IMG/VR virus record: IMGVR_UViG_3300029258_003546
Location: 16,000-79,999 of that record
Length of the DNA: 64,000 bases
Source of the DNA: a virus
Direction: 5' to 3' (one strand)
The position numbers were made by a program, and so were the translations under genes. The notes under the pieces were generated by a model that was not told the origin of the DNA, did no database searches, and saw only the letters and a program-made list of their open reading frames with translations. Numbering within the stretch: position 1 is the first letter of the stretch; each line of letters starts with the position of its first letter. This document shows positions 15,849 to 63,692 of the stretch, piece by piece.

Positions 15849-16097
15849 ATGGCTATGTACGAGCCTGATAATGATCTTCACCTGTTCGTTGTGAAAGTAC
15901 AAGCCAAGTGGGATTACCTGACTGCGGTGGTGCGCGCTTCTGATTGTATCGCAGCAGAGCGGCTAGCTATAGATCTAGCTAAACAACAATGGTATGAAAT
16001 CGTATACAAGGACGGATTGGAAGTCACTGATTGTATAAAGCTGGATCCTGATGGTACAGCTGAAGTAGTACATGCTACGTGGTTCGCTGTGGGGTAG
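15849..16097 (+). CDS. Hypothetical protein
   Basis: 82 aa coupled ORF. Confidence 0.6.
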   Translation: MAMYEPDNDLHLFVVKVQAKWDYLTAVVRASDCIAAERLAIDLAKQQWYEIVYKDGLEVTDCIKLDPDGTAEVVHATWFAVG

Positions 16098-55610: not shown

Positions 55611-57398
55611 ATGACGACCAATCTGAGCAGCAGCTCGAATTACACCGCTCTAAACAATCGGTACTACGGGGATAAGTTCCCCAATCCTTGGACCGACTAT
55701 AGCAGCGACGACTTCCCGCTCGATCTGCCGCGCATATTTAGGTTCTGCGAATATGTATGGTATTCCTGCGGCACTTTCAGCTCGGCCAGCAAGCGTGTTA
55801 TCAGGTATCTGCTGACCGAATTAGATTTCGGCGATCTGGATAGTGTATCCAGAGATAAGTGGCAGGAACTGATGGACGGGGCTGGCATATTATCAACGCT
55901 GGGCGAAATAGGTGATAATTTTCTGGCCTATGGTAACGCCTTTTCCAGTATTTATCAGCCGTTCAAGCGGTTTCTGCAGTGTCCCAAGTGCGGGCGCGAG
56001 ATCCCTTTGTCTGAGGCTGACTACACGTTCGAGCACTGGTCGTTTGTCATGACGTGCCCGAGATGCAAGTACCACGGTGAATTTCGTCGACACGATGTGA
56101 GGCATACTGATCTCAAGAGCGTCAAGGTAAAAATCTGGAGTCCGCATGATATCTCTATGATCTGGCATCCTGTCAGTCAGAGGGCCAAGTATGCTTGGAA
56201 GCCTCCTGCGGCCTTTAAGGAACACGTTCGCAGGGGCGATAAGTTTTATCTTGAGGATACACCCTGGGAGCTGGTGGATGCTGTCAGGAACGATGGTTTG
56301 TTTGTGTTCTATCCTGGCAAGTTGCATCATGCTAAAGAGCCTACTCTGGCTGGTGTAGAAAATAGAGGTTGGGGTATACCTAGGGCTCTGGCGCATTTCA
56401 AGCAGGTCTGGTATTGTCAGATGCTGCGTAAAGCTAATGAGGCCATATCGTTAGATTGGATTTTCCCCCTGCGTATCATAGCTCCTCCAGCTGGAGGAGG
56501 GGCAGGTGGTATAGAACCTGCCAGGCAGATTAATCTGGGCGATTTCAAGAGCAACGTTAACAGCATTATCGATGCACACAGACGCAATCCTAATCGATAT
56601 TATGTGCTGCCTTTCCCTCTAACATACGAGGAGCCTGGAGGGCAGGGTCTCAAGTTTGCTCCGGTAGATCTGCTGGAGCAGAGTACGGCTCAACTATTGA
56701 ATGATATGGGTTACCCTGTGGATCTGTACCAGGGCAATTTACGTTTGCAGACCATGCCTGCCGCTCTAAGGCTGTTTGATCGGAACTGGTCACATCTGCG
56801 AGATAGTTTCAACGAGTTCTTGCAGTGGTTTGCTGAGGCCGTGGCTAATTTATTCCGCTGGGAGGTCGTAAACGTGCGATTGCGGCCTGTGTCTCTGGCA
56901 GACGATCTTGAGAATCGTCATATCATGCTGAACCTCATGAGTGCAGGGCTGGTGTCAGATGAAACCGCGCTCGGTGAGTTCAATATCGATGCTAAGCAGG
57001 AGCGGCAGAAGAAGCTGCGCGAGCGTATGGAGTATGAACGTCAGACGCTTGAGATGCAGAAGCAACAGGAGAGCTCGCTGGCTATGATGGAGAATGTAGA
57101 GGGTGGGGCGCTGTCTCAGCCGGGGCAGGCTCCAGCACAGCCGGGCATGATGCCAGCGCAGGGCGCTGTTATAGCCCCAGGAGCCGACTTGGAATCGAAA
57201 TGGGCTCAGTCGGAGCAAATGGCTCAGCAGCTGCTCAGCATGCCGTACACGCCTCGACGGCAGCTTCTTAACAGGATTAGAGAATCTGATCCTACGTTGC
57301 ATGCCTTGGTTACCCAGCGGATGGATACAATTCGCTCTCAGACCAATACTGCGGCGGGCGAGGCAGCTCGGCAAGGTCAGCTGGCTTTGCCGGCGTAA
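55611..57398 (+). CDS. Portal protein with a Zn-ribbon insertion
   Basis: GDNFLAYGNAF; CPKC..CPRC insert; RGWGIP; Gln/Pro-rich tail; SD aggag. Confidence 0.65.
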   Translation: MTTNLSSSSNYTALNNRYYGDKFPNPWTDYSSDDFPLDLPRIFRFCEYVWYSCGTFSSASKRVIRYLLTELDFGDLDSVSRDKWQELMDGAGILSTLGEIGDNFLAYGNAFSSIYQPFKRFLQCPKCGREIPLSEADYTFEHWSFVMTCPRCKYHGEFRRHDVRHTDLKSVKVKIWSPHDISMIWHPVSQRAKYAWKPPAAFKEHVRRGDKFYLEDTPWELVDAVRNDGLFVFYPGKLHHAKEPTLAGVENRGWGIPRALAHFKQVWYCQMLRKANEAISLDWIFPLRIIAPPAGGGAGGIEPARQINLGDFKSNVNSIIDAHRRNPNRYYVLPFPLTYEEPGGQGLKFAPVDLLEQSTAQLLNDMGYPVDLYQGNLRLQTMPAALRLFDRNWSHLRDSFNEFLQWFAEAVANLFRWEVVNVRLRPVSLADDLENRHIMLNLMSAGLVSDETALGEFNIDAKQERQKKLRERMEYERQTLEMQKQQESSLAMMENVEGGALSQPGQAPAQPGMMPAQGAVIAPGADLESKWAQSEQMAQQLLSMPYTPRRQLLNRIRESDPTLHALVTQRMDTIRSQTNTAAGEAARQGQLALPA

Positions 57399-58090: not shown

Positions 58091-58816
58091 ATGGCCGATA
58101 ATTATCAGCAGACTGCTACAGTCGTGTTTTGCGACTTAGCGGACGACGAGGAGTCGTGGCTGGTAGAGCAGTTAGACGGGGCTGAGCGTCTGCGTGAGGA
58201 CTCTGATGTGCCTGATACTTCTGATGTTGGCGGTCTAGTGCTAACAGAATACATCAAGGATCGAGGATGCATGCCGTTCGAGTGGATTATAGACGAAGAT
58301 GCAAAAACGTCTGGCAAGCTGTTTTGGGTGTTTGCTGACGGTACGTGGTTTGACCCTGAAGGCTTTGCGGAGTTTGTTCAGGCGTTCCTTAAGAAATTCA
58401 GGCCCGCGTCTTGTGCTGCGGCATCGTATTCGTACACTTGTTCGCGGCCGCGTAGAGACGAGTTTGGCGGCGGAGCAGTATTTGTTACTGCGAGCAAGAT
58501 CAAATACAAGGATACGCTGGATTGGACGATAGAGAAACGGGTGCGGCATAAACAGTGCTTGTTGGCTGACGCCACTCATGCGGCTATAGAGGCCTGGTCG
58601 TCGGATATTGAGATAGACGACGATGAAGTTCTGGCGCTGATGCGGCCTCTTTTGGGCAGAGATGTGGATCCAGACGCTTTGGAACCAGCTATTCATGCTG
58701 AGTTAGAAGATAATACGGTGTATCACGCTGTCAGGATTGCAGTTACCAAGCTGTACGAAGCGTCAAAGCCCGATGTCGAGCTTTCGTGGTGTGATATAAG
58801 CAAGCGTGCGCTGTGA
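58091..58816 (+). CDS. Hypothetical protein
   Basis: MADNY...YTCSRPRRDEFGGGAVFVTA. Confidence 0.75.
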   Translation: MADNYQQTATVVFCDLADDEESWLVEQLDGAERLREDSDVPDTSDVGGLVLTEYIKDRGCMPFEWIIDEDAKTSGKLFWVFADGTWFDPEGFAEFVQAFLKKFRPASCAAASYSYTCSRPRRDEFGGGAVFVTASKIKYKDTLDWTIEKRVRHKQCLLADATHAAIEAWSSDIEIDDDEVLALMRPLLGRDVDPDALEPAIHAELEDNTVYHAVRIAVTKLYEASKPDVELSWCDISKRAL

Positions 58817-59058
58817 CGGGGTTGAGGCAGAATGGTGTTTCTGCTAGACTTAGATGCATGGGTAAAAGTGCGTCTGATGATCGTAGTCATGTCATTGCTG
58901 CTCGCATATGCGCGGAAGCCGGGGTTGTTCCACAAGGGTCTATCGTAGACGAGGTGTTGCGTGTTGCTGCGCCTCGCATTTACGGCCACGAATTTGCAGC
59001 TTTAGAGGGCGCTATCAGGAGCAGAATAGCCGCCCACAAAGCGCAGACCGACAGCTAA
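58813..59058 (+). CDS. Hypothetical protein
   Basis: Coupled ORF. Confidence 0.5.
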   Translation: MTGLRQNGVSARLRCMGKSASDDRSHVIAARICAEAGVVPQGSIVDEVLRVAAPRIYGHEFAALEGAIRSRIAAHKAQTDS

Positions 59059-59068
59059 GGGAGCCGTC

Positions 59069-59512
59069 ATGGATGATTTCGATCTTGCGGAATCGATGCG
59101 AGAAGCAGGGATTCCGTATGATGATTACGAATGGGAGGTAGGTCAACAGGTGAACGAAGAGTTGGCTCGCTACGTAGCTCGCTGCTTGGCGATCATCAAG
59201 ATGGCCGGTGTTGATTCTGAGCTGCCAGACCAGCCAACCGATCGTGAGTTTGACACTGCTACTTACATAACAGCCAGATCTAAAACTGGAGGTCCTCCCG
59301 TTTCCGCGCTGGTAGAGCGACTGGGTCAGAAGGACAAACCCGCCGACAAGCTGGGCGAGAGCCTAGAGGAGGCTACGGGTTCACTGATGCTCCGGAGCGG
59401 ATACAAGAGTATTGGACGTCCTGCGTCCAGGTGTATTATCGGCTACTACATGTTTACTCCGATTGTAGTGAGCAAGTGTTTGGCTACGATAGAAGAAGCA
59501 CAGAGAAGGTAG
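59069..59512 (+). CDS. Hypothetical protein
   Basis: 147 aa. Confidence 0.65.
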   Translation: MDDFDLAESMREAGIPYDDYEWEVGQQVNEELARYVARCLAIIKMAGVDSELPDQPTDREFDTATYITARSKTGGPPVSALVERLGQKDKPADKLGESLEEATGSLMLRSGYKSIGRPASRCIIGYYMFTPIVVSKCLATIEEAQRR

Positions 59513-59516
59513 TAGC

Positions 59517-60227
59517 ATGGCTACGCGCGACGATACCAGGCATTTATCACGTTTGCGGCCCAGGCAGCTTCAGGAGTATGTTCTACAGGAGCACAAAGCC
59601 CAACGTGCTGGTCATCATTACGATTTAAGACTAGGCGGAGGCCCCCGCGACACTTTTTTCAGCTGGGCGCTGCCAAAAGGCATGCCGAGGCCCGGCGAGC
59701 GACCTCGCTTGGCCGTACCCACTCCTCTACATACCCGGCAGGCGGCTACGTATAAAGGCCGCCTGTCGGGCTATGGTGCAGGCGAAGTGGACATTGCCAA
59801 GCGCGGCCAGGTGATGGTGACTGAGGTTGGTCCGGGCCTGGTTTCGTTTACTATAGCGTCTGAACGGTATCCTGAGCGTTTTCAGCTGCGCAAGCACAAT
59901 AATAACTGGTTGCTTATCAACACGACTCCACGCGCAGCGTGGGTTTCCGATCAGAAAGTTAGATATGTCAAGGTCCCAGCTGAAAAGGTGGACCAGCTGT
60001 TCGATCCTAAGTTTGCTGTACAGGCCAAGATAGACGGTGCTGCAGCGTGGTTGCGGCTGCTCAAGGACGAAGTAGAAGTAGCCAGCTACAGAGTATCAGC
60101 TCAAACAGGCAGACCGATAGTGCATACCGAGCGTATGGGCTTAGCTGGCTTGAAGGCGCCGATTCCTGCGCATTTGCAGGGCAGTGTTTTACGAGGCGAG
60201 ATCTATGCGGAAAAGCGGGATGCGTGA
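59517..60227 (+). CDS. LigD-type 3'-phosphoesterase plus the N-half of an ATP-dependent DNA ligase
   Basis: QEH.A..AG.HYDLRL, SWALPKG, RLAV, GYGAG; ligase motif I QAKIDG and motif III LRGEIY; then stop. Confidence 0.8.
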   Translation: MATRDDTRHLSRLRPRQLQEYVLQEHKAQRAGHHYDLRLGGGPRDTFFSWALPKGMPRPGERPRLAVPTPLHTRQAATYKGRLSGYGAGEVDIAKRGQVMVTEVGPGLVSFTIASERYPERFQLRKHNNNWLLINTTPRAAWVSDQKVRYVKVPAEKVDQLFDPKFAVQAKIDGAAAWLRLLKDEVEVASYRVSAQTGRPIVHTERMGLAGLKAPIPAHLQGSVLRGEIYAEKRDA

Positions 60228-61002
60228 TGACGAGGCCTTGATGTTGGGTGCGGCGGCGGCTAGTGGTGCCACCGGTGTTTTGGCATCTATGCTGGCGTCT
60301 TCGGTGCTGAACAGACGTGTGAGCAAGACTTTGAGCAGCATGCGAGGTACGCCTCCCTCTCGTCTAAAGCTTTTCTGGAAGAACATACCGCGCGATATCC
60401 AACGCCGTGTCAAGGCTATTCGTGTTCCTGGGTTTCGCAATGCTGCCTTCATACCTGCACGGCCCTATCCGTTGATTGTTACGGACGAAAAAGGCAAGAC
60501 TACCTTTCTTGAGTCCAAAAAGAACTACATACTGTACGATCCTGGCTTCTTCATACCTGGCGTGGTTGCTCATGAGTACGGACATGCTACCGACTGGTTG
60601 CGGAACAAGTGCACTCTGGGCGGCGAGGCTTCCAAAGATCTGCTTGCTGGGTTGTTGGGTAGTGGTGTGATGCTGGGTGGCCCATTTCTGCTATCAGCCG
60701 CTACACGTGACCTGATGCCGAAATCAGGTTTGGGTCGTGGTTTGGCTCTGGCTGGTGTACTTGGTGGCGGTGCGGTGTTAGGAGGTTTGGGATCGTACTT
60801 GTCTCAGTATCCAACATTGAAATCGGAGCGAACGGCCAGCGACTTTGCGCGTGAAGTTATCGCCAAATCCAGGCTTGCAGCTGCCAACGCTGAAGCTAAC
60901 AGACGCGCCTTGAAAGAGGCATATCGAACGTATTCGGTACCGCCTGTGCTGTCAGGCGCGTTGTTGGGGTTGGGTGCCGGCTTAGCTGGCCAGGTCAGAT
61001 GA
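60220..61002 (+). CDS. Membrane-associated HEXXH zinc peptidase-like protein
   Basis: VAHEYGHA, downstream E..AS, Gly-rich TM segments. Confidence 0.65.
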   Translation: MRDDEALMLGAAAASGATGVLASMLASSVLNRRVSKTLSSMRGTPPSRLKLFWKNIPRDIQRRVKAIRVPGFRNAAFIPARPYPLIVTDEKGKTTFLESKKNYILYDPGFFIPGVVAHEYGHATDWLRNKCTLGGEASKDLLAGLLGSGVMLGGPFLLSAATRDLMPKSGLGRGLALAGVLGGGAVLGGLGSYLSQYPTLKSERTASDFAREVIAKSRLAAANAEANRRALKEAYRTYSVPPVLSGALLGLGAGLAGQVR

Positions 61003-61111
61003 TAACCTGTCCCTGGGCCGTATCGTGTTGGAAGAGGACGGTGGCGTCGTGGGCGCTGGAGTCGTTGTTGGAGCTGATTACTAGAAGATCTAGACAGCTG
61101 GAGGTTGAGCA

Positions 61112-61297
61112 ATGAGCTACCGAATCAGGCTGGAGCCGGATGGAGACATCCGTCTCTGCGATTGGGAACGGTATGTGGCATTTCGCCGGGCCTTTGCGGA
61201 CTTGTTCTCACGCTATACTCCAGAGGAGGTTCTGGAATGGGGCCGCAAGACCTTTGGAGATCGATTCTTTCAGGCAATTGCGCAAACGGATATGTAG
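61112..61297 (+). CDS. Hypothetical protein
   Basis: 61 aa; SD ggaggt. Confidence 0.55.
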   Translation: MSYRIRLEPDGDIRLCDWERYVAFRRAFADLFSRYTPEEVLEWGRKTFGDRFFQAIAQTDM

Positions 61298-61307
61298 GTG
61301 ATGATCA

Positions 61308-62081
61308 GTGAATGGAGCAAGTGCGGTACTGCCGGCGTCTGAGTTAGGCGGCATTCTGAATGCCACGATTGCTAACTCTTTGAAGCGTCAACGCGAGAAA
61401 AATGTGCGTATGCGCATGGCATTATTTGACGTTGCCAAATATGGACGCAAGCGCATGACCAAAGAGATGCCTTATCTGGAGCGACTGGCCAAGGTTAAGG
61501 AAGTGGCTAGTGTATTGCCGGCAGGCGTGTTCACCGTACCAGAGACTTTTACAGATCCTGAAGAGCAGCGGAAGTTGTGGGATCAGATAGTAGCTGGTCA
61601 GCATCCGCTGACTACGGAAGGCATTGTTGCTCATCCGCTGGCGGGTGGAAGGCCGGCGAAGGCTAAGGTCTATCCTGAGTACGACGTATTCGTGCGTGAA
61701 GTGTTTCCTGGTGAAGGCGGGCTGGCTGGCAAGGGTGCCGGTGGTTTTAGTTACAGTACTACACCTGACGGTCCAATAGTTGGGCGTGTTGGCACAGGCT
61801 TTGACATGTCTACACGTGAAGATATGTTATCTGCTCCTGAAGAGTGGGTTGGCAGGAAGGCTCGTATACGTGCCCAGGAACAATTTCCTTCGGGAGCATA
61901 TCGAGCTCCGGTTTTCATCGCACTACACGAGGATTATCCTATGAACAAGGCTGCGTTTCAGCTAGATCCTGATGTTCTCAAGCGCATGGCTACATCTCCT
62001 GTTGGTATGGGCCTGCTGGGTGCGGGTGCTGGCGGTCTGGGTTGTTGGCTCGTAGCGGTCAGGGCGCGGCTGACAAGATAG
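61308..62081 (+). CDS. C-half of the ATP-dependent DNA ligase (motifs IIIa-VI, OB domain)
   Basis: LFDV, ERL, EGIV, KAK, VGTGF, YRAPVF; SD aggtga. Confidence 0.8.
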   Translation: MNGASAVLPASELGGILNATIANSLKRQREKNVRMRMALFDVAKYGRKRMTKEMPYLERLAKVKEVASVLPAGVFTVPETFTDPEEQRKLWDQIVAGQHPLTTEGIVAHPLAGGRPAKAKVYPEYDVFVREVFPGEGGLAGKGAGGFSYSTTPDGPIVGRVGTGFDMSTREDMLSAPEEWVGRKARIRAQEQFPSGAYRAPVFIALHEDYPMNKAAFQLDPDVLKRMATSPVGMGLLGAGAGGLGCWLVAVRARLTR

Positions 62082-62779
62082 ATCAGGGGCGTACCGCTTC
62101 ACAGGCACAGGTATCCAGATTTAGCCCAGAGGATTATGCTTATCGCGAGGCGTATGAATCTGAGAAAAATGTCAGAGGGCCTGGCTACGTGCCTGCAGTG
62201 GAAACATCTATATCTCTCGGCCCTCTAGTTGCCAAGTACGGTGGTCGTGCTTTGTGGCGCCGCGCCGTGCCTGGAAGCCTGGCTGGTCGCGCTGGCATGC
62301 AGACCTGGCTGACCGGCGCCACTGTGGCGAATCCTGCTCTAGCAGCAACACTGGCTACAGAAGCTGCGCGACGAATTATTCGATATCGTACTGGTGTTAC
62401 TGCCGGGCTGGAAGCGGCGGAAGGCGCGTATGCTGGCAGCCAGGCGCGTCGACGAGAGTATCAGTTACAGGCGCATCAGAGACTTCGCGGTTTGACCAGA
62501 GAACAAGCGCTGACCGATTATCCTCATTTAGCTCCGAGATCGCCGGATTACTATACGCTGGCTGCGTTGCAGTCTCAGCTGGGCTACACGCGTCCGGAGG
62601 CTCTACGCGCCTTGACGCAGATACGAGGCGAGGCTGAAAAGTGGACGAGAAGGGCGGCTGGAAGAGGGCCAGTTTCCTGGTTGGGAACTGCTGCGACCTT
62701 ACTCCGGTCGCGTTTAACGCCTGCAGACAGGTTGCTCGCAGCGCGTGAGAACTACATACGTGAAAGGTTGAATCGATGA
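62042..62779 (+). CDS. Hypothetical protein, probably the continuation of 61308 across a frameshift at ~62040
   Basis: One extra G in ctggg-ttgttg would give GGLGLLARSG. Confidence 0.55.
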   Translation: MLARSGQGAADKIDQGRTASQAQVSRFSPEDYAYREAYESEKNVRGPGYVPAVETSISLGPLVAKYGGRALWRRAVPGSLAGRAGMQTWLTGATVANPALAATLATEAARRIIRYRTGVTAGLEAAEGAYAGSQARRREYQLQAHQRLRGLTREQALTDYPHLAPRSPDYYTLAALQSQLGYTRPEALRALTQIRGEAEKWTRRAAGRGPVSWLGTAATLLRSRLTPADRLLAARENYIRERLNR

Positions 62780-63692
62780 TTGATCGAGAGGATAGATTAG
62801 TAGAAGTCGTAACAATGTCTGCAGTCGCTATATTTATTCTCGTAATGATGATAAATGCAGCTGTATCTGTTGGCTGTAAGCAGACTGGCGTTGTTGACTC
62901 TACGGTTAAGCCTGACCAGAGATTGAACGAGGCCATTGAAGACATAGCCGCACTTGAGAAGAAGGTGTCTAATCTGCAGGAAACGTCGGGCAAGTTGGAT
63001 AGCAAGGTGACGGCAGCCGAAGGGGCAATCGTAGATACCAAGACCGAGCTGACTAATCAGGTCAGCCAGGTCAATGAAACATTGTCTCAGCAGATTACCA
63101 GCGTGGCCAATACGACCAATCAAAATCAGCAGACGCTGACCGATATCAAGAATAAGACGGTATCGGCTGAATCAGGAGCGGCTGCTGCTCAAGAGCAGGT
63201 TCAGGAGGTAAAGGAAAATCACGGCAAGATCCTGACGGAGTTGAAAGAGGAGGTTGCCAATGCCAATTCGTCAGCTCAAGCTGCGCAAAAAGGAGCATCG
63301 GGCCTGGCCGAAAGTATCGACAACTTTGAGGGCAAAATTGAACAGGAAATCCAAAATGCGCAGACCACGGTGAACAAGAACGAGCAGTTCACCTGGAAGA
63401 TTTTCTGGGTGGTGATTGTGGTAGTGGGTGTCTGCCTGGTTTCCGTTTTGGGAGTGGTGGTGTACTTCACGTGGGCCAAGGTAAGCGGCACATCCAGGTG
63501 TCTAAGCGCTGTAGTAGGGCGTCTACAGGCGTTGCTGATTTGTTGCACAAGAAAGTGAAAAAAGTGACCAGTAAAGCTATTGCACCAATAGGTTCTGGTT
63601 TATTGGATGGTGCTGTTAGTAAGGCTGCTGGCGCTGTAAAGGACAAGGTGGTGGAGGTTGTTGAAGGAGAGGAAGGCAACGAAGGCCTATGA
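62776..63692 (+). CDS. Coiled-coil lipoprotein with a C-terminal TM helix (spanin-like); probable frameshift ~63518
   Basis: Signal peptide plus VSVGC lipobox, long coiled coil, TM WVVIVVVGVCLVSVLGVVVYF. Confidence 0.55.

Follow-up and report, generated by a model that had tools for sequence, protein, structure and literature searches.

A viral phosphoesterase-DNA ligase gene divided within its catalytic domain by a 1.1-kb multi-gene insert

Phage enzymes can be encoded by genes that have been split in two. In phage Aeh1, nrdA is split by mobE and, in phage 25/44RR, the polymerase gene 43 is split into 43A and 43B; the products of these genes were shown to be active. The T4 topoisomerase genes 39 and 60 are split by mobA, with the function of the split enzyme having been deduced (PMC2988022). 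Here we describe a ligase gene in the same situation. It lies in a stretch of 64,000 nucleotides (nt), hereafter the window, that corresponds to positions 16,000 to 79,999 of IMG/VR virus record IMGVR_UViG_3300029258_003546. The ligase is encoded by two open reading frames (ORFs), an N-half (59517-60227) and a C-half (61308-62081), that lie in the same frame (both start coordinates are divisible by 3) and are set 1101 nt apart by an insert. As in nrdA, gene 43 and the topoisomerase genes, a phage enzyme gene is cut in a functional region by a promoterless ORF cassette with overlapping stops and starts. Unlike in those systems, the cut falls inside the nucleotidyltransferase fold of an ATP-dependent ligase, and the insert lacks an HNH or GIY-YIG gene and carries instead a metallopeptidase gene that normally adjoins the ligase. 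Reassembly of two polypeptides into an active enzyme was shown for NrdA and gp43. We favor the view that gene fission has produced a two-chain phosphoesterase-ligase expressed with a companion peptidase, and regard it as reasonably probable.

The preliminary description of the locus called the enzyme LigD-like. The name is apt for the domains that are present: as in bacterial LigD, a PF13298 phosphoesterase is joined to an ATP-dependent ligase (motifs KxDG, GE, FD, EG and KxK) and an OB domain. It does not extend to the rest of the LigD system. No polymerase or primase domain was matched in Pfam by the halves or by the neighboring genes, and neither Ku (PF02735; positive in a control genome) nor a second ligase was found in the 80-kb record. 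Unlike bacterial LigD, the ligase of the window is minimal and comes closest to the Chlorella virus and Lig E types, the best mycobacterial LigD being 28% identical. The record, of 79,999 bases, is estimated to be about 41% complete. It probably derives from a large uncultured phage, since relatives carrying the same gene family sit on contigs of 160-226 kb.

A further point of comparison is offered by the polyvalent proteins of phages and conjugative elements, where MPTase is the commonest hub domain and is often interspersed (Iyer et al. 2017, PMC5512222). In that paper the term LigD is absent, "ligase" occurs 3 times and the ligase module is undescribed. Relatives of the present ligase sit in giant multidomain proteins with the same domain repertoire as the polyvalent proteins, whereas the module of the window is broken into separate genes of 236, 265 and 257 (or 522) amino acids (aa). 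A phrase search of one library of papers returned no naturally split or heterodimeric DNA ligase, which is weak evidence of novelty.

Two halves of one ligase

The N-half (59517-60227; plus strand, as are all the features described below) encodes a 236-aa protein comprising a phosphoesterase domain and the first part of the nucleotidyltransferase domain. Residues 24-124 match the Pfam LigD_N family (PF13298; 4.6e-13, 49.7 bits against a cut-off of 31.1). Motif I (KIDG, with K171) and motif III (RGEIY, with E228) are both present and the protein ends in AEKRDA, followed by the double stop TGA TGA. The C-half (61308-62081) starts with a GTG codon, is 257 aa long here (522 aa in other assemblies) and holds motifs IIIa to V and the OB domain. 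It matches phrog_114, ATP-dependent DNA ligase, at 2.2e-13 (profile positions 311-500), and its motifs IIIa (FDV), IV (EGIV, with E104 and G105) and V (K118 and K120) all occupy invariant columns. The phrog_114 match spans the OB region, which shows a weak similarity to DNA_ligase_A_C; OB_2 is matched in relatives, and the OB region of the ligase encoded at a related locus, L007, aligns with Chlorella virus ligase.

The cut in the nucleotidyltransferase domain falls between motifs III and IIIa, leaving two ORFs in place of one polypeptide. A family hidden Markov model (HMM) built without the window sequence placed the N-half at positions 12-246 and the C-half at positions 248-463. The comparison with contiguous homologues advised in the preliminary description gave the same picture, the unsplit L007 ligase mapping exactly onto both halves (its residues 38-270 match the N-half and 270-485 the C-half). 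Deleting 60225-61325 (1101 nt, that is, 367 codons) fuses ...RDA with VLPAS.... In most of 150 cluster representatives of the family, 11 residues separate the motif III Tyr from the ELGG block, this being the commonest length. The window has 6 residues before the break and 5 after it; therefore, removal of 60225-61325 gives back a loop of normal length. Each junction is preceded by TGCG, at 60221-60224 on the left, where the junction follows 60224, and at 61322-61325 on the right. An interruption within the catalytic domain, with both parts in one frame and bearing the expected motifs up to the AEKRDA end, and a seamless join once the insert is removed had all been read from the DNA at the outset; ORF calls, LigD_N and phrog_114 matches and the HMM positions agreed with this reading.

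The arrangement recurs in independent assemblies. Throughout 58800-62039 there were 0 differences from a 19,277-nt contig that is present, with depths of 17-29, in 4 public runs of 3 studies (sediment 2018, seawater 2021). The exact N-half protein, along with those of the HExxH gene and of orf61 from the insert, is encoded on 4 contigs, the largest of 169 kb. Because the sequence is identical in 4 runs from 3 studies and the same proteins are found on 4 contigs, misassembly, which the preliminary description had named as fatal to its interpretation, is excluded as far as contigs can show. The one feature that might speak for an artefact, either a chimeric contig or indel errors breaking a single ORF, is a 97-nt indel that distinguishes the record from the other assemblies nearby; set against the identity of the split region itself, it leaves this explanation a negligible probability. 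Elsewhere, blastn against phage records gave no match, and single-protein scans of viral and metagenome contigs with the C-half or the HExxH gene were empty.

The indel concerns the tail of the C-half. Relative to four Logan contigs and to P0001 and P0154, the record lacks 97 nt at about position 62039; the difference may be genuine, or the assembly may have collapsed here. Elsewhere the C-half runs on into a Gly-rich segment and a 245-aa tail to make up the 522-aa protein; in the window the absence site and the 245-aa tail ORF are found at 62037-62779. The tail shows no homology to the HExxH gene.

Layout and origin of the insert

The insert (60225-61325) starts with TGA TGA, GAGG and ATG and ends with TAG, AGGTGA, GTG and six codons. 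In keeping with the preliminary description, it holds a HExxH gene and two small ORFs; the three are packed in three different frames, with stops and starts overlapping as ATGA. The HExxH gene (60205-61002) is Zn_peptidase_2-like. It has alternative starts at 60184, 60205 and 60241 and ends at 61002, encoding 265 aa from the ATG at 60205 and 253 aa from the ATG at 60241. As called, the ORF runs over the final codons of the N-half; ATG 60241, which lies within the insert and has GAGG 5 nt upstream, is an equally possible start. The first small ORF, orf38 (60999-61115), is in the ligase frame and shares ATGA overlaps with both neighbors. Its codon log-odds value is 0.039 (the in-frame mean being 0.19 and the off-frame mean -0.29), and its coding status is doubtful. 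The second, orf61 (61112-61297), is a small ORFan with a value of 0.155 and is probably coding. Neither matched a Pfam or PHROGs family and orf61 is also without an Atlas relative. Promoter and terminator scans yielded counts near the shuffled expectation, with none placed at the junctions.

The C-half has a Shine-Dalgarno (SD) sequence of its own, as had been noticed from the start. This restart signal (61296-61310) consists of AGGTGA at 61296-61301, placed 6 nt before the GTG at 61308, and overlaps two stops, TGA TGA, at 61299-61304 in frame with the ligase. A comparable restart is available at about 5.9% of random window positions (p ~0.06). Because the left end of the insert reads as stop, stop, GAGG, ATG and the right end as stop, SD, GTG and six codons, the insert would be a fragment of an operon. 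Apart from the 4-nt TGCG, it has no terminal direct or inverted repeats; junction microhomology of at least 4 nt would arise by chance with a probability of about 0.01-0.02, a value taken from a rough formula and not computed by a tool. The GC content of the insert equals that of its flanks, and its codon usage is native to the phage.

Along its whole length (residues 6-270, 6e-17) the HExxH protein proved homologous to the C-terminal domain of P0022, the 745-aa product of L007:9188-11425, in which the order is phosphoesterase, unsplit ligase and HExxH domain. Weaker homologues are found before or after the ligase in P0027, P0025, P0116 and P0026. The homologue regions match PF04298 (Zn_peptidase_2), and P0027, scoring 32.8 bits, exceeds the curated cut-off of 27. 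No such match was obtained at E up to 1 for the window protein itself. Its Atlas structure gave template modeling (TM) scores of 0.54-0.59 to a cluster that is 100% PF04298, and its nearest Atlas feature clusters consist of free-standing phage proteins of 228-300 aa. The HEYGH motif is kept, the conserved downstream Glu of the PT..E..A(S/T) block aligns, and Gly/Ala/Leu-rich hydrophobic segments are apparent, by eye only. The HExxH motif, the downstream Glu, the hydrophobic Gly-rich segments and the likeness in fold are traits shared with the PF04298/YugP-like putative neutral zinc metallopeptidases, from which the insert protein differs in belonging to a branch specific to phages, whose members either stand alone or are fused to the ligase. 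Word-based homologue searches with the HExxH gene matched only itself. Candidate relationships to the HELTH region of L003, to genes downstream of L001 and L003 and, by hhalign, to the HELVEH in-frame insert of P0159 were all rejected for want of homology.

Since the HExxH gene is homologous to a domain linked to the ligase, it appears to be a companion and not a passenger, a connection that had been overlooked. A foreign origin of the insert was ruled out by GC content, by codon usage and by this homology. Judged from its sequence, then, the insert is the usual companion of the ligase, now lying inside it, and not a foreign mobile element.

One alternative is that the 1101 nt are removed or passed over, whether by splicing of the RNA or of the protein, by excision from the DNA or by ribosomal bypass, so that the ligase is again made in one piece. 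In its favor, the insert has a length divisible by 3, it can be removed seamlessly, it is flanked by 4-nt repeats, and P0161 has a true intein only two residues from this site. Such a length, however, has a chance of 1 in 3. A group I or group II intron was rejected: no Rfam match was obtained over 58500-63000 at E up to 1, the ORFs fill the insert and leave no room for a ribozyme core, and, wherever the boundaries are set, a U at the end of the 5' exon cannot be combined with a G at the end of the intron. Pairing from junction to junction was no better than in shuffled or native controls. An intein or split intein was likewise rejected on account of the stops in the ligase frame, the silence of Pfam and the lack of Hint blocks in any frame; blastx of the insert found no Hint or intein similarity to the P0161 intein, the N-half carries no intein N-part and the C-half no HN-Ser/Cys part. 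A homing endonuclease or transposase cassette was discarded as well, the three ORFs matching no nuclease or transposase family in Pfam or PHROGs. Finally, neither an insert-less contig nor the joined junction was seen in the contigs of the 4 runs, bearing in mind that contigs drop rare variants; the runs listed as carrying the sequence included none of RNA. With Rfam, Pfam, PHROGs and blastx all empty, the preliminary description was right in seeing no intein, intron, homing endonuclease or transposase signature. The splicing or excision event that it offered as one of two explanations finds no support, and any form of restoration must be considered very improbable.

The ligase family and the III-IIIa loop

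A full HMMER scan with the C-half gathered 848 clusters at 50% identity, almost all of them proteins of 450-2200 aa. Among relatives the ligase is accompanied by InPase, NUDIX, 2H-SAK, GNAT, SNF2 helicase and HExxH peptidase domains. In bacterial and archaeal genomes, represented by one genome for each of 185,579 species, only 3 contigs of metagenome-assembled genomes (MAGs) and mycobacterial LigD (28% identity) were recovered. The family is thus virus-specific, nearly confined to viral contigs, and constitutes a module of large polyvalent-type proteins. One member, a 934-aa protein (L001:4642-7446), combines a 2H-SAK phosphoesterase, a P-loop kinase-like segment (GASGAGKTT), a LigD-type phosphoesterase and the ligase, a combination reminiscent of a complete kit for healing and sealing RNA or DNA ends.

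The loop between motifs III and IIIa is crossed in one aligned stretch in 131 of the 150 representatives. Another 7 of the 150 have both halves in one protein, 51-539 aa apart, the intervening sequence being a low-complexity linker, a folded insert or an intein. Linkers in the loop reach about 260 aa in relatives and in-frame inserts range from about 240 to 540 aa. P0161 has a true intein (Vint in Pfam, 3.5e-8; Cys at the start, HN-Ser at the end) two residues from the position of the break in the window. In P0034, P0107/P0160 and P0118 the C-half starts at HMM position 247 behind unrelated N-terminal sequence, and in P0165 the N-half ends at position 251, with unrelated sequence next; scans of viral and metagenome contigs for the surroundings of these proteins were empty. 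The III-IIIa loop is a hotspot of interruption in the family. The likeness to the inteins of phage replication and repair genes is that the same loop hosts the one of P0161; the difference is that the insert of the window has stops, uses three frames and lacks Hint.

Inteins of the family occupy two sites, the III-IIIa loop (P0161) and a position just before the GLPIVHTER block (P0137, with a Vint match in P0123). P0159, P0093, P0103 and P0069 form one lineage with in-frame loop inserts of 240-590 aa in a single ORF, one of them with a HELVEH motif.

Two neighboring genes may be mentioned. The gene at 55611-57398 (595 aa) is syntenic with the ligase in about 10 related phage loci, at 24-37% identity. 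It has no match in Pfam or PHROG, and its candidacy as a portal gene was dropped for lack of support from either. Just downstream of the tail, 62776-63558 encodes a protein of 260 aa that combines a long coiled-coil with a hydrophobic segment in its C-terminal part; it gave weak matches to coiled-coil families and a weak PHROG match to "hemolysin".

Two chains, decay or separate roles

Of 121 columns in which conservation is at least 80%, the halves retain 113, where members of the family average 112.1 (sd 4.8); their 493 codons contain no stop or frameshift. In the ligase parts 82 of 84 conserved columns are retained, a count that equals or exceeds the family median: 24 of 25 family-conserved columns (>=80%) in the first part of the nucleotidyltransferase domain and 58 of 59 in the C-half. 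All invariant residues of the C-half alignment (A1) are kept, as is every invariant column of alignment A2, which includes K171, D173 and G174 of the N-half. The nearest relative of the N-part is L007, at 60-65% identity. Root-to-tip distances of the halves are average. There is a weak hint, nothing more, of a mosaic origin of the halves, P0022 being unusually close in the N-part (z = 2.4) while distances are otherwise star-like.

The halves were also co-folded, as the preliminary description had recommended. Residues 130-236 of the N-half and 1-215 of the C-half reached an ipSAE of 0.83, whereas the highest of three controls scored 0.00; 58 of 80 solved complexes attain this mark, as do 2 of 110 mismatched pairs. 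Between runs at least 92% of contacts are shared, the pLDDT of the partner is at least 79, and the predicted interface comprises about 270 contacts. Success is to be expected of pieces that are halves of a known fold.

Of the explanations put forward at the beginning, a naturally two-chain ligase is therefore the better supported, given that the split occurs in independent assemblies, that the halves are intact and conserved, that the C-half has its own SD and start, and that the co-fold is positive. We infer the following course of events. An ancestral contiguous gene for a phosphoesterase and an ATP-dependent ligase would have been broken between motifs III and IIIa, in a surface loop of 11 residues. 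The 1.1-kb operon fragment that entered it, carrying the Zn_peptidase_2-like HExxH gene that usually goes with the ligase and one or two small ORFs, probably came in through illegitimate recombination, with the 4-nt TGCG as microhomology. Its left end would give the N-half its stops and its right end would provide the SD, the GTG and the six codons with which the C-half begins; the insertion would have survived because its ends allow translation of the first half to stop and that of the second to begin anew. All the genes would be read from a single transcript with coupled translation, and the two chains would associate non-covalently so as to rebuild one nucleotidyltransferase fold. Trimming of 3' ends would be the task of the phosphoesterase domain, and their sealing that of the reassembled ligase.

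Several observations weigh against this interpretation and bear on its most serious competitor, namely that a dispensable ligase was inactivated recently and is decaying, its halves still being intact for lack of time. Because the known copies do not differ from one another, selection since the split is not measurable and purifying selection cannot be demonstrated; a recent insertion would likewise leave both halves intact. Among the 53 loci retrieved by means of the C-half alignment and the 3 MAG loci there is no other example of the split, the ligase being uninterrupted at this site in every one. The 97-nt deletion, which breaks the frame just past the C-half and severs it from its tail, is a possible sign of decay, unless it is an assembly variant. 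The phosphoesterase domain (59517-59920) retains 31 of 37 conserved columns, less than the ligase parts do. Among the 6 departures, a Tyr conserved at 98%, four residues past the PLH histidine, is replaced by Ala, and a Gln conserved at 95% is replaced by Thr. We take the lost Tyr to correspond to a residue essential to the LigD phosphoesterase, and the domain may be weakened by the change. The terminal branch measures 0.57-0.67, rather more than the median of about 0.4. The restart signal, at p ~0.06, may have arisen by chance, and the pass of the co-fold may reflect the likeness of the two pieces to solved single-chain ligases and is no proof of binding. On the other side, decay has to contend with the lack of any stop or frameshift and the retention of nearly all the conserved ligase columns, with an SD and a GTG placed in the correct frame exactly at the right junction, and with an insert whose codon usage is fully native. 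Moreover, the loop is interrupted in several other lineages, which speaks for its tolerating interruption. Taking both sides together, decay is possible, on the unlikely side.

It could also be that the halves serve separate roles, the N-half as an end-processing enzyme and the C-half as the nucleic-acid-binding head of the 522-aa protein, with no ligation taking place. Stand-alone phosphoesterase proteins do exist (PDB 3p4h, 3p43) and L058 has a separate phosphoesterase gene; in other assemblies a Gly-rich tail of 265 aa continues the C-half, and several family members have the C-half only, beside unrelated domains. However, the catalytic Lys, the Glu residues of motifs III and IV and the lysines of motif V are all kept, and these could drift freely if ligation were not performed. 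In addition, the two pieces of a nucleotidyltransferase domain are unlikely to fold alone, and the extensive interface predicted between them points the same way. We regard such a division of labor as quite unlikely.

Returning to a ligase assembled from two chains, a bolder version of the idea would be that the loop is a recurrently selected break point of a virus-specific phosphoesterase-ligase module, entered in different lineages by inteins, folded domains, long linkers and whole genes. Ligase activity in this phage would then hinge on the assembly of two chains made along with a probably membrane-located Zn-peptidase, and the product would be a two-component enzyme for healing and sealing ends, switched by assembly or processing during infection. 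This extension seems to us unlikely.

Should the two chains form an active enzyme, they would represent a natural ATP-dependent ligase whose nucleotidyltransferase fold is made from two polypeptides. The locus would then define a permissive split site between motifs III and IIIa, usable for engineering split or conditionally assembled ligases, and would extend phage gene fission, as exemplified by NrdA, gp43 and the topoisomerase, to an insertion that does not involve a homing endonuclease. Beyond this locus, the analysis outlines a large and almost purely viral family of phosphoesterase-ligases, of 848 clusters, that is absent from the founding paper on polyvalent proteins.

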